The notes under the pieces are model-generated. The model was given only the letters and a program-made list of their open reading frames with translations. It searched no databases and was not told where the DNA came from. From the UHGV virus genome UHGV-0129264: 10,808 bases of DNA; one strand, 5' to 3'. The position numbers were made by a program, and so were the translations under genes. How positions within the stretch are numbered: position 1 is the stretch's first letter; every line of letters starts with the position of its first letter. The DNA is from a virus. Below are positions 2,567 through 5,943 of this stretch, one piece after another.

Positions 2567-3745
2567 ATGAAAGGCGAAGTGAAAGAGCGCGGCATGATTT
2601 TTAACGATGAGATGGTCCGGGCAATTCTTGGCGGGAATAAAACACAGACTCGCAGGATTGTTGAAGAAAAATTCTATGGATGGGCAGTGGCCGCAGAGTT
2701 GCTTGCCAAGCATTGTCCATATGGTCAACCGGGCGATCGTATTTGGGTTCGCGAAACCTACCGGGTACATGGCAAAGCGACGGACGTCGCAACGCTGGTT
2801 TATCGCGCAAGCGTGCGTAACTCCTGGACAGAACAAACGCACCGGGTTCCGGTCGAGGTTTGTAATAAACCAGTATCAGAAAAGTGGACGCCATCAATTC
2901 ACATGCCGCGCTGGGCATCGCGCATTCTTCTGGAAATTACCAACGTGCGCGTTGAGCGGTTGAACGATATCAGCGAATGCGATGCAAGGGCTGAGGGCGC
3001 ACCAACAGAATCGACCCTCATTGGCGATAAGCATTACCCAAGTTTCCGTAGCCTATGGAAATCAATTTATGGCGAAGATAGTTGGAACGCTAATCCTTGG
3101 GTGTGGGTAATACAGGCTGATGTCGCGCAGGCAATTGAAAAACTCAAACGGAAATTAGTGGAATGCAATCGCTATAACTACTGCGCAGATGCAGTTAAGG
3201 GCGTTGAGTATGCCTGCCACGCTGCCATGCTTCAGGGTAGCCAACCTGTAAGCCAAAGTAAGACATACAGGTTGGATTTTGGGCAATGGCTGGAACAGCA
3301 ACGCGGGAAAATCGATGTGGACTGTGGTTGTGTGTCCACTGAAACATTCATGCACTGGCTGCGGGTAGCTTACGAGGCTGGCAACTATCCGGATATTCCG
3401 GATAGTTCGGTGCCAGCGCCAGGAAAGGGCGTCACCGGTGAACGTATCCGCATTAAGCCGCATGTTTATCGCGAACTGGTTAACCGTCTCCACGATACAG
3501 CGATCAAGTGTGCTGGCACCCAGCAATTACGAGAAAGAATTAGCCGTGTTTTGGGCGACGTTATTACGCCATATCATCATAAACAAGCCGAGAAAAGCGG
3601 TCTGGAAAGGTGTCATCTTGAGGCAGCATTAAAGATTAAGCCGGGGCATACGCTTGGCATTATTGATGCACTGTTGGTTCATAAGATGGCCAGGGCTTTA
3701 TTGTCGTTGGTGGACGCTGGTGATACAAGCGAGGGTGAAGTATGA
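2567..3745 (+). CDS. 392-aa protein whose N-terminal ~190 aa resembles the ASCH/PUA-like domain common in prophage proteins; C-terminal half unknown
   Basis: ATG at 2567 after AAGGGGGA; N-terminal signature MIFNDEMVRAILGGNKTQTRR...GDRIWVRETY recalled as typical of ASCH-domain proteins (memory, not searched). Confidence 0.8.
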   Translation: MKGEVKERGMIFNDEMVRAILGGNKTQTRRIVEEKFYGWAVAAELLAKHCPYGQPGDRIWVRETYRVHGKATDVATLVYRASVRNSWTEQTHRVPVEVCNKPVSEKWTPSIHMPRWASRILLEITNVRVERLNDISECDARAEGAPTESTLIGDKHYPSFRSLWKSIYGEDSWNANPWVWVIQADVAQAIEKLKRKLVECNRYNYCADAVKGVEYACHAAMLQGSQPVSQSKTYRLDFGQWLEQQRGKIDVDCGCVSTETFMHWLRVAYEAGNYPDIPDSSVPAPGKGVTGERIRIKPHVYRELVNRLHDTAIKCAGTQQLRERISRVLGDVITPYHHKQAEKSGLERCHLEAALKIKPGHTLGIIDALLVHKMARALLSLVDAGDTSEGEV

Positions 3746-3843
3746 GAGTTGCAGATCACATCAAACACCTTGAAAGAATTATCGAAAACGGTGAACTCTT
3801 AAGAGATCAGATGAGACGCACGGCAGAGCCAGGGAGGCGATAA
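3742..3843 (+). CDS. 33-aa ORF overlapping the upstream stop (ATGA); possibly the N-terminal part of a frameshifted gene continuing in the 3873-4103 frame
   Basis: ATG 3742 overlaps TGA 3743-3745; the downstream frame is already open from 3795, so the two frames overlap by ~50 nt. Confidence 0.3.
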   Translation: MRVADHIKHLERIIENGELLRDQMRRTAEPGRR

Positions 3844-3872
3844 TCCGCAGTCAGGCTGGTAAATTAAAGCAA

Positions 3873-4103
3873 TTGTCAGAGATTAACACGCTATACAAGA
3901 ACAGACGTAACCGGGCGGTGATGCGGCTTCAGAAAGCACGTAATGAAATTAAATTGGTGGAGGCAAAACTGAAAAAACAGATCCAGCGTTACGATCAGCA
4001 AGATGCTTTTTATGCCGCCATCAAGGCGGCTGCTAATGAAATAGGCATCTGGAAGTTGCTGGTGGAGAAAGCAAAGACGAAGTTAAATGCCAACGAAAGC
4101 TGA
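3873..4103 (+). CDS. 76-aa K/E-rich helical small protein, TTG start (alternative ATG at 3921)
   Basis: ORF track; weak RBS; hairpin ATGTGC-N6-GCACAT at 4109-4126 just after the stop. Confidence 0.4.
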   Translation: MSEINTLYKNRRNRAVMRLQKARNEIKLVEAKLKKQIQRYDQQDAFYAAIKAAANEIGIWKLLVEKAKTKLNANES

Positions 4104-4159
4104 ACTACATGTGCCCACCAGCACATACAGAAAATGATTGTTTCCACATCAAAGAGATT

Positions 4160-4182
4160 TTAATGTTTCACTGAAACATTAA
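4160..4182 (-). terminator. Perfect 23-bp palindrome TTAATGTTTCA-C-TGAAACATTAA, likely terminator for the minus-strand small gene (or a protein-binding site)
   Basis: Overlaps the stop codon (4179-4181) of the 45-aa ORF; on the minus strand the hairpin is followed by TTAAAATCTCTTT. No U-tract on the plus strand. Confidence 0.45.
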
Positions 4183-4316
4183 GTAAGCCAGTGCATAATT
4201 CCATTTTTTACTGACCTTAAAAGCAAAATCAAAACGATGATGAGGATAATAGCCAGAATCTGGCTAATAATAGGCGCATCTAAAAATGCACTCAGGAACT
4301 GAAAAAAAGCGTTCAT
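4179..4316 (-). CDS. 45-aa hydrophobic single-helix peptide (MNAFFQFLSAFLDAPIISQILAIILIIVLILLLRSVKNGIMHWLT), small membrane protein
   Basis: Manual minus-strand translation; ATG at 4316-4314 preceded by AAGGAA (complement of 4324-4329) at 7-8 nt; stop embedded in palindromic terminator; not in the ORF track (<60 aa). Confidence 0.55.
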   Translation of the reverse strand: MNAFFQFLSAFLDAPIISQILAIILIIVLILLLRSVKNGIMHWLT

Positions 4317-5178
4317 TCAGGTGGTTCCTTGTCAAATGTAAAGGTGCACTTGCTCACGTTGACGTAGAAACCCAACCCCTATATAGTTGGATTCGGTGAA
4401 TGAAAGTCGTTAACGTGAGCTTACGGCACATGTTTTCGGAAAAACATCAGGGAACGGCTAATTCCTTGATGCGGGTGGGGTCTGTAATGCAGACCCTATC
4501 TATTAACGTCATGATTGCATCTCAAATTTTCTCCTTATCTTCAATTAATCTACATTCATTTCATCTGTTAGCCACCACAATATGTAGAAAATGGCCCTCT
4601 TGCAAGTGCATAACTTTGTGGATAACTCAGGAAGGAAAAAGTGGCTTTCGCGCACCTTCGGTCAGACAAGGTGTCCGGGAAAGTCAACGCAAAGAAAAAA
4701 ATTGTTAAAAATAACGTTTGTTGGAATTGTATATTTTTATCCCCTTCAATGGTTAGCATTCTATTAACATCTTTTTTTAGAGACAGAAAAACATATCGTA
4801 ACAACATATATACAGTATTAAGAGGCGAGTATTATCCTGCGGTGGGAATTCTGGGCGCTGTTAGATTCGACTTTCTCAGCGGGATTACATCGTCAACTTG
4901 CGACGTTGCCGTATGACTTTCGTGTAATAGGTGACAATGATGCGGCTAGTGAGTTACTTGTGAAGTTTTTCGGAAAAGGTTTTGTGGCCTCGGATCTTGA
5001 TGAGCTACAGCAACATGAAGTGTCTAATTTGATTTTTAGCCATAGCCAATAAGCCTCCCTCCTCCATCAAGGCCACAATTTGTGACCTTAAACAATTTGT
5101 TTTCTGCTTTTTCTTATTTGAGGAAATAACGTTGTTGACAGCTAATAGGCTCGTTGTTGTTATACATACCTGTATAGA

Positions 5179-5535
5179 TTATGACCGTAAATTATTAGCG
5201 GATTTTAAGCCATATTCACCGTTGTAGAAATTACTCATGTTCCATTCATTAGGAAGTTCTTTTCTGTCCAATGTATAGTGGCGCACGATATAACGATCTT
5301 CATCTTCTTCGATGGACAGGCGGACATAGCCAATGTGAATCACCGATACGGGCGGTGTTCGTATTGCATAGATGTCGCGGAGATATACCGGCAGCTCGAC
5401 AAATGCATCAGGTGCATCTGTGATGCTCGTTTTTTCACAGTATTCATATAACGCATCGTTGATATCGTTAAGAGATTCATGATCGTATATTTCCAGGTAA
5501 TTACCGCGATCGCGATGGTACTCGATTTTAGCCAT
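5179..5535 (-). CDS. Hypothetical 118-aa acidic protein, second gene of a minus-strand pair
   Basis: ATG at 5535-5533 abuts the stop of the upstream gene (minus strand reads TGAATG); AGGGGA 6 nt upstream, inside the upstream gene's 3' end. Confidence 0.7.
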   Translation of the reverse strand: MAKIEYHRDRGNYLEIYDHESLNDINDALYEYCEKTSITDAPDAFVELPVYLRDIYAIRTPPVSVIHIGYVRLSIEEDEDRYIVRHYTLDRKELPNEWNMSNFYNGEYGLKSANNLRS

Positions 5536-5943
5536 TCAAAATCCCCTGTTATCGTTTTGCATTTCTCTAATCCGGTTCAGAACTACTTCGTGCTGGACTT
5601 GGATAGCGGCTTTTTCGTTTTCAAGCCGGGCAATAGACATCTCTAATTCTTTGCTGTACCAGGCGAGCTGGGCCAGGTTCATCCGGTTGTGGTCGAGAGT
5701 TGGAGACACTTCGACGCGATCCCTTTCTTTCTGCTTTAATGAGAAGAGATTCATCTCATCCCTTGAGGAAAATTCAGCAACAATTTCTTGTTGATGATCC
5801 GGTCGCTGCGGCATCCTCGCCAGTATAAATGGCGGTTCTTTTGAAAACATGAATGTCGGTTCAGACCGTGTTTTTACCCAGCTTGCCTGCTGTCTTTCGG
5901 CAAGTTCACAGGCTTCATCATAGTTATCTGCCAAACAAAGCAC
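5536..5943 (-). CDS. Hypothetical 135-aa protein with C-terminal coiled-coil-like segment, first gene of the minus-strand pair; start uncertain
   Basis: GTG start at 5943 without a clear SD; internal ATGs at codons 32 and 44 also lack a well-spaced SD. Confidence 0.6.
   Translation of the reverse strand: MLCLADNYDEACELAERQQASWVKTRSEPTFMFSKEPPFILARMPQRPDHQQEIVAEFSSRDEMNLFSLKQKERDRVEVSPTLDHNRMNLAQLAWYSKELEMSIARLENEKAAIQVQHEVVLNRIREMQNDNRGF

Follow-up and report, generated by a model that had tools for sequence, protein, structure and literature searches.

In the typical layout of a type I toxin gene on a plasmid, a hydrophobic peptide of <50 amino acids (aa) is preceded by a long leader, within which there is an antisense promoter. 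In hok/sok of plasmid R1, srnB and flmA of F, and pndA of R483, the setting is a low-copy plasmid or prophage, the peptide has ~50 aa, the leader is long and folded, and a stronger internal promoter provides a short structured antisense RNA directed against the leader and not against the toxin coding sequence. In tisB/istR-1 and zorO/orzO, which are located on the E. coli chromosome and act in the 5′ untranslated region, the antitoxin RNA is divergently encoded, its complementarity is short, and it acts by blocking a ribosome standby site on the processed mRNA. Is there a module of this general type in the family of phages P1 and P7? The stretch of DNA considered here is UHGV virus genome UHGV-0129264, whose full 10,808 nucleotides (nt) are referred to below as the window. 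By its similarity to known elements the window is a P7/P1-like phage-plasmid, the region 3700-4900 being 99.6% identical to phage P7 and, over the shared part, 96% identical to phage P1. Positions ~4160-4660 correspond to a cassette of ~500 bp that is conserved on P1/P7-like phage-plasmids. The reading put forward, to which we would give a probability of roughly one half, is that the cassette works like a type I toxin-antitoxin module whose promoter, with its DnaA boxes, was captured from nrdA, and it is put forward because a hydrophobic peptide of <50 aa, a long folded leader and a stronger internal convergent promoter match the hok/sok layout. For the peptide itself the best explanation offered by its sequence is a small single-pass inner-membrane protein, the protein half of a self-contained cassette.

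The peptide is specified by a 45-codon open reading frame (ORF) with its own ribosome-binding site.

4179-4316, minus strand: gene for a 45-aa hydrophobic peptide, with an ATG start and a TAA stop at 4179-4181; product MNAFFQFLSAFLDAPIISQILAIILIIVLILLLRSVKNGIMHWLT

4325-4330, minus strand: Shine-Dalgarno (SD) sequence AAGGAA, 8 nt upstream of the ATG

The product consists of an N-terminal helix, an invariant A-P...S-Q motif, a membrane-spanning core at residues ~15-33, and a basic C-terminal tail, and AlphaFold2 models it as two helices, 2-12 and 15-44, interrupted at Pro15 (mean pLDDT 82.5). An earlier note on this DNA had proposed the ORF, a well-spaced AAGGAA SD and a single hydrophobic helix with a charged tail, and in all these respects, down to the start, the stop, the length and the 8-nt gap, it was borne out. 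With 45 aa, a peak hydropathy of 3.1 and the basic tail, the product has the properties of small (<~60 aa) hydrophobic membrane-targeted peptides. Short ORFs are common, there being 31 of at least 30 aa within 2.6 kb; an SD core together with a Kyte-Doolittle hydropathy of at least 2.5 over 19 residues is found in one of the 92 ATG-initiated ORFs of 30-70 aa in the window, namely 4179-4316 on the minus strand, and no ORF of 200 shuffled windows combined the two. The same note had termed the ORF unannotated, which holds in part. Two phages, Salmonella phage SJ46 (AMR60003.1) and JL22 (gp107), have the identical ORF as a called coding sequence, and NCBI's PGAP annotation of P1-type plasmids lists the P1-type allele as WP_000123562.1, a hypothetical protein in each case, so that three independent annotations treat the 45 codons as coding. 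It is absent from the P1 and P7 reference records, which place upfM/upf91.3 on the opposite strand, and PGAP omits it on plasmids carrying the window's exact allele. Among database proteins there are also frameshifted or truncated versions of the peptide (P0001, P0002, P0005 and P0006, from 1-2 contigs each), which could reflect either sequencing errors in T/A runs or natural inactivation.

Searches with tblastn, word-indexed and HMMER protein searches, and scans with DNA patterns recovered five diverged alleles, all of them from P1-like elements of Escherichia, Salmonella and Shigella. Conservation among related P1-like elements, on which the earlier note had made its proposal depend, was thereby found, as the ORF is open and hydrophobic in all five. 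From these features of sequence and comparison we consider it very probable that the 45-codon ORF is a real gene which the P1 and P7 reference annotations have missed. The fifth allele (L069, 3001-3321, plus strand) sits between hot and an H-NS gene, and a 106-aa fused 'protein', P0007, has been called there from leader plus peptide because the stop of a 25-codon leader ORF is lost.

What would drive its expression? About 250 nt upstream of the ORF, and facing it, is a promoter which does not feature in the earlier note.

4577-4625, minus strand: nrdA-like promoter with DnaA boxes TTATCCACA (4617-4625) and TTATGCACT (4605-4613)

4600-4605 and 4577-4582, minus strand: its -35 element TTGCAA and -10 element TATTGT, with a predicted start near 4570

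4317-4570, minus strand: predicted leader of ~254 nt, its 5′ end placed from the promoter

From ~4660 to 4587 the minus strand is identical at 73 of 75 positions to the Escherichia coli K-12 segment directly upstream of nrdA, in the same direction, and every E. coli chromosome of the collection has a match to it. The spacing of the -10 is the same in both (TATTGT here, TATCTT in nrdA), and the DnaA boxes, the -35 and a TAnnGT -10 are kept in all alleles. As in a promoter of the nrdAB type, two tandem DnaA boxes abut a TTGCAA -35 and face the downstream gene. DnaA either activates or represses nrdAB, depending on its level and on the nucleotide bound to it (PMC8203912). The resemblance had in fact been seen long ago: GenBank M95666, a 1993 record which covers phd and doc, marks on the minus strand, at what is here 4586-4641, a dnaA box and an 'nrdA-like promoter'. 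Overlapping the promoter on the other strand is the ORF 4591-4767 (plus; upf91.6 in P7, upfO in P1), which has 74% identity over 46 residues to E. coli K-12 YpaB, a small protein encoded divergently from nrdA. With a YpaB-like ORF alongside the nrdA promoter match, the whole ypaB-nrdA promoter segment would therefore have been captured. Both DnaA boxes, the -35 and the orientation toward the downstream gene are as in E. coli; what differs is that identity ends at about the -10, beyond which the plasmid leader and the 45-codon ORF stand in place of the nrdA leader and nrdA. The replaced leader includes a stretch which we take to be the NrdR-box region. An alternative candidate for the start of the peptide mRNA is provided by a second minus-strand promoter, TTGAGA-17-TAGATA (4520-4525 and 4497-4502), which is conserved but has a poor -10.

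Facing the sense promoter from within the leader is the promoter for a predicted RNA of opposite polarity.

4359-4387, plus strand: antisense promoter TTGACG-17-TATAGT (TTGACG at 4359-4364, TATAGT at 4382-4387), the predicted PupfN of the P1 record

4395-4505, plus strand: predicted antisense RNA of ~110 nt with three stem-loops, of which the second (SL2) is at 4445-4471; both ends are predicted

4478-4496, plus strand: terminator-like hairpin of the antisense RNA, GC-rich, with the tail TATCTATT at 4497-4504

4352-4420, minus strand: long predicted leader hairpin with an outer stem (4408-4420/4352-4364) and an inner stem (4385-4394/4368-4377)

A plus-strand element at this point had been reported in the earlier note as TTGACG-N15-TATATA; the element is real and invariant, and is better read as TTGACG-17-TATAGT. 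It has 10/12 consensus matches, and both its sequence and its spacing are the same in all five alleles. The RNA initiated there would be antisense to the leader of the peptide mRNA and not to its coding sequence. Its predicted fold has a minimum free energy of -43.2 kcal/mol, compared with -27.2 for shuffled sequences (z = -4.9), and in all five alleles the plus-strand fold is more stable than that of its complement by 7.8-15.3 kcal/mol because of G-U pairs. In SL2 and the last hairpin 95.8% of positions are paired and 3 pairs have changed on both sides, which 2 of 500 shuffles equalled; for this count the 3′ two-thirds were realigned, the whole-RNA MAFFT alignment having misplaced an SL2 arm of allele 5. 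The SL2 stem is kept and its loop varies from allele to allele (CGGCTAA, CTGTGAA, CGGCCAA, CGTGA), as is to be expected if it is the recognition loop of an antisense pair. The last hairpin with its tail is a plausible but weak terminator. Within the window the antisense promoter is followed by no conserved plus-strand gene, and P1-type alleles lack the ATG of upf91.4, so the antisense RNA is probably non-coding.

The 200-250 nt upstream of the ORF are better conserved than the ORF itself, which is attributable to the sense promoter, the folded leader, and the antisense promoter and RNA. In the leader hairpin 97% of cells are paired across eight distinct sequences; 2 pairs have changed on both sides (19 of 500 shuffles equal that), 3 one-sided changes give G-U pairs, 3 other pairs are G-U throughout the eight, and all these G-U pairs form on the minus-strand RNA only. 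There are, then, compensatory changes in both RNAs, and their counts are small because there are only five alleles, from one plasmid lineage. A coupling ORF in the leader, of the mok kind, was considered and rejected as allele 4 has neither of the two leader ORFs of 25 and 21 codons.

In the mechanism proposed, the nrdA-copied promoter with its two DnaA boxes, possibly under DnaA control, would give a minus-strand mRNA from ~4570 with the ~254-nt structured leader followed by the 45-codon ORF, and the stronger, invariant convergent promoter would give the structured ~110-nt RNA ending at the hairpin 4478-4496. Fully complementary to the middle of the leader, the latter would silence the peptide by forming an RNA duplex, open to cleavage by RNase III or to decay, and/or by making the two transcriptions collide; duplex-triggered decay and transcriptional collision are here default assumptions. 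Were the antisense RNA lost, e.g., on plasmid loss, or outrun, the peptide would be translated and inserted in the membrane, the basic tail facing the cytoplasm, and it may then oligomerise via the conserved Ser-Gln face, damage the membrane and stop growth. The role of such a module might be plasmid addiction or phage exclusion.

How good is the evidence that the peptide is made at all? Four alleles have exactly 45 codons and not one indel across 138 nt at ~25% nucleotide divergence, with alignment gaps starting right after the stop codon; in allele 5 a 20-nt deletion swaps the last 12 residues and the first 33 codons are kept. No other ORF, on either strand, is open in all five. The ATG, the AGGA core of the SD (in AAGGAA, GAGGAT, AAGGAG or GAGGAC) and the spacing between them are constant, and the adjoining bases vary. 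Between distant alleles the ratio of nonsynonymous to synonymous substitution (dN/dS) is 0.29-0.50, and in the first 33 codons the variable sites are distributed 15/5/18 by codon position. Ala-Pro and Ser-Gln of the peptide are invariant. Small membrane peptides typically combine a fast sequence turnover with kept hydrophobicity, an invariant motif and a basic tail. When random mutation was simulated at the observed density for alleles 3 and 4, the most diverged of the 45-codon alleles, an open frame with an equally hydrophobic helix resulted in only 6.5% and 3.9% of trials, respectively.

A number of points weigh against the toxin-antitoxin reading, and the first of them concern this same coding signal, which is moderate, not overwhelming. 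Over the whole ORF the codon-position bias has p = 0.19, in 13% of trials of random mutation at that density the frame stays open in both allele 3 and allele 4, amino-acid identity among the alleles is not above the random-mutation expectation, and the sample is five alleles of a single plasmid lineage. The chance of an open frame and the unremarkable amino-acid identity would also suit a rather unlikely reading in which there is no peptide, what is conserved being RNA or regulatory DNA (the leader, the antisense pair, a DnaA-binding region), with an open frame that is incidental to U-rich, AT-rich sequence; so would the leader being better conserved than the ORF, the exact proteins being missing from a collection of 15 billion, and the altered C-terminal tail of allele 5. 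However, it would have to accommodate the conserved ATG, SD core and spacing, four indel-free alleles with gaps immediately after the stop, the retention of hydrophobicity (p ~0.04-0.07 per allele), dN/dS of no more than 0.50 in all distant-allele comparisons, and the ORF being the sole one of its kind in the window.

The remaining points against concern promoter, RNA and peptide family. The sense promoter, counted by hand, has only 8/12 consensus matches, and the promoter scan did not list it. The T tail of the antisense terminator is weak and interrupted (TATCTATT; TATCTTTT in allele 4) and failed a simple terminator scan, and the antisense RNA may be subject to read-through, in P1 toward hot. 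Antisense complementarity ends 78 nt upstream of the start codon, and constrained folding of six sequences of the five alleles gave no consistent change in SD or AUG accessibility when the antisense RNA was bound, which leaves the repression step without a worked-out mechanism. A specific RNA switch, in which the leader hairpin's 3′ arm, freed by antisense binding, would mask the ribosome-binding site, was rejected since constrained folding gave it no support. Comparison of the peptide with Pfam and NCBIfam (hmmscan, E up to 10) and with PADLOC matched no model, those of known type I toxin families included.

A peptide without a toxin-family match and a folding model without a clear off-switch speak for the main rival to the type I reading, which is that the gene is real but encodes a non-toxic small prophage membrane protein. 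Such a protein might modulate a host membrane protein or exclude other phages, with DnaA-dependent timing like that of nrdAB, and the convergent promoter would do no more than adjust its level or drive plus-strand genes, e.g., hot. The coding evidence is equally applicable to it, the nrdA-type promoter is in its favour, and in P1 the neighbouring genes, hot and humD, are replication and repair genes. Yet the antisense promoter and structured RNA are invariant even where hot, or any downstream plus-strand gene, is absent, the layout is typical of type I toxins, and a fast amino-acid turnover with kept hydrophobicity suits a membrane-damaging peptide better than one with a specific protein partner. 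We regard this explanation as possible, though on the evidence doubtful.

Might the gene instead be on the other strand, where the reference records have it?

4286-4399, plus strand: upfM/upf91.3 ORF of the reference records, open in the P1 and P7 alleles only

It is annotated in both the P1 and the P7 records and has a PHROG family of its own, phrog_31823. However, the frame is broken in alleles 3 and 4 and has a different reading in allele 5, PGAP does not call it, and its conservation between P1 and P7 is explained by its lying mostly over the invariant antisense promoter and the leader hairpin. Judged by its frame, upfM/upf91.3 is probably not a gene, and that it should be the gene here, with the minus-strand ORF spurious, is very improbable. 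The promoters P1upfM and P2upfM were considered as sources of an RNA antisense to the coding sequence and set aside as unlikely, their -10 CATAAT being within codons that differ in alleles 3-5. As for mutants, Piya et al. list upfM as nonessential, citing a single-gene knockout study (PMC10695390, PMC9024508), and upfN as nonessential from their own CRISPR interference (CRISPRi) knockdown as well as the knockout study (PMC10695390), in both cases with respect to plaque formation. Each of these two ORFs covers part of the ~500-bp cassette, and their being dispensable is compatible with a toxin-antitoxin pair because the deletions would take the toxin start or promoter together with the antitoxin.

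Of the resemblances suggested in the earlier note, to type I toxins, to small holins or antiholins and to membrane-depolarising effectors, the first fits the surroundings best and the holin/antiholin one is unsupported. A holin or antiholin-type protein that times lysis late in infection would be consistent with the size and the single hydrophobic helix. Nevertheless, upstream on the minus strand there is no P1 late-promoter -22 box followed by a -10, and no annotated neighbour (pmgV; hot, humD, phd, doc or unrelated genes) is described as a lysis gene, so that neither late-promoter control nor linkage to an endolysin or lysis cassette was found at the locus. There is no holin-family match, and the knockout of upfM, which overlaps the start of the ORF, is listed as nonessential for plaque formation (PMC10695390, PMC9024508). 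Of all the explanations weighed, we give this one the least credence.

Sequence similar to the region 3700-4900 is present in 193 of 5426 complete E. coli genomes (~3.6%), nearly always on plasmids. On one side of the cassette the neighbour is, depending on the element, pmgV, a type I restriction-modification gene or H-NS, and on the other it is hot, unrelated genes or humD, with no neighbour in some elements; since the neighbouring genes vary in this way from element to element, the cassette appears to be autonomous. PGAP annotation of an identical plasmid gives the usual P1 gene order of pmgV-like, humD, phd, doc, pdcB, lpa and pacA. The P1 genes hot and lxr are absent from the window, and in their stead are two unrelated minus-strand genes of unknown function (5179-5535 and 5536-5943); of the late promoter of hot, a match to its -22 box (AGTTACTT) is left at 4952-4959. 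The pmgV homologue, 120 aa in P1, is split here by an apparent frameshift into a 33-aa ORF (3742-3843, plus) and a 76-aa ORF (3873-4103, plus), of which PGAP annotates the 76-aa part only.

Though P1 is heavily used and well annotated, the cassette has stood for twenty years as three ORFs of 'unknown protein function', apparently on the wrong strand. To recognise here a gene for a conserved membrane peptide, partnered by an antisense RNA, would put the P1 and P7 annotations right and account for the orphan 'nrdA-like promoter' of the 1993 GenBank record. If true, the type I reading would put beside phd-doc a second addiction or defence module. It would also offer an example of a host promoter under DnaA regulation that a mobile element has taken over for a potentially lethal gene. 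P1-like plasmids spread resistance genes (PMC9603915), and with their presence in ~3.6% of complete E. coli genomes this gives their maintenance modules a practical interest.

Some further features of the locus deserve mention, of which the first is at the end of the ORF.

4160-4182, no strand assigned: perfect 11+1+11 palindrome TTAATGTTTCA-C-TGAAACATTAA, arms 100% complementary, spanning the stop codon

That the ORF ends inside a perfect 23-bp palindrome, as the earlier note had it, is correct, the stop codon being included and the arms being of 11 nt. Its further proposal that the palindrome is a terminator does not stand: the palindrome is AT-rich with 1-2 G-C pairs, lacks a T-run, went unscored in the terminator scan, and is degenerate in alleles 3-5, with a 1-nt deletion in a P1-type plasmid. 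It is possibly a 3′ stem-loop of the peptide mRNA, not a canonical terminator. A second near-perfect palindrome, TAATAGCCAGA-T-TCTGGCTAATA (4247-4269, 91% complementary), is within the coding sequence; in the mRNA folds predicted for the P1 and P7 alleles it forms a hairpin.

Does the peptide have relatives? A homology search against small proteins had been the earlier note's suggestion; an HMMER profile search of 1.84 billion representative proteins and word-indexed searches of 5.8 billion yielded only the ORF's own variants and hence no family beyond them, and scans of one genome per species with a DNA pattern and with a peptide pattern found no copy. The sole PHROG match is to phrog_1184, of unknown function, with E = 0.058, and that in Rfam is a lone chance match, to BsrG, with E = 0.96. 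In the literature nothing relevant was found on the peptide, on its gene names or on a type I system in P1. On IncFII plasmids of Klebsiella, Enterobacter and Citrobacter there is an unannotated 33-codon ORF, MVLLLDAFLSAPLLSQCAATVFLLLLIWLKKME (L006/L007, 2492-2593, plus strand; 125 contigs), which has the AFLxAPxxSQ motif in common with the peptide and an AAGGAA ribosome-binding site, and whose hhalign probability against the P1-family alignment is 96.9%; a simple scan found no antisense promoter for it. By its motif it may be a distant relative of the P1-family peptide. On an Enterobacter asburiae plasmid, ~1 kb from this 33-codon ORF, PGAP annotates the DinQ-like type I toxin gene dqlB (L007, 1488-1583, plus strand). 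A wider proposal, that P1-family phage-plasmids have an unrecognised type I family in which, by way of the captured nrdA promoter, toxin synthesis is tied through DnaA to the replication state of the host as well as to antisense decay, and of which the IncFII AFLxAPxxSQ peptides are distant members, we advance only tentatively and think unlikely in its full form. It would connect a membrane toxin with replication stress, or with the control of plasmid copy number, in a phage that is a classic model.

How, finally, does the locus compare with named systems? hmmscan against Pfam or NCBIfam reported none of Ldr, Fst, TisB, Ibs, ShoB, ZorO and DinQ, and the peptide, if it does work like a type I system, would be of a new family outside hok, ldr, fst and the others. 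With par (fst/RNA II) of the Enterococcus plasmid pAD1 it shares convergent promoters for the toxin and antitoxin RNAs, which here are putative, and a proline conserved early in the helix is a likeness to the Fst peptide; par differs in having a Gram-positive host and in that its overlap involves the 3′ ends and direct repeats, where here it would involve the 5′ leader, and there is no Fst/Ldr match here. With tisB/istR-1 and zorO/orzO it shares a small helical membrane peptide and a pairing of the antitoxin, in the present case a predicted one, far upstream of the start codon, ending here 78 nt before it. In contrast to their short complementarity and block of a standby site, there would be here a full cis-antisense overlap of ~110 nt, folding gave no switch, and the promoter has DnaA boxes and no LexA box. 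From hok/sok, srnB, flmA and pndA it is set apart by there being no match to the Hok/Gef model PF01848, by the lack of a conserved mok-like frame (the 25-codon leader ORF is absent in allele 4), and by a promoter copied from a host housekeeping gene. In all else set out at the beginning for those systems, namely a low-copy plasmid or prophage as carrier, a hydrophobic peptide of about their size, a long folded leader, and a stronger internal promoter for a short structured RNA which here would likewise be directed against the leader and not against the toxin coding sequence, the P1/P7 cassette and the hok/sok group are alike.

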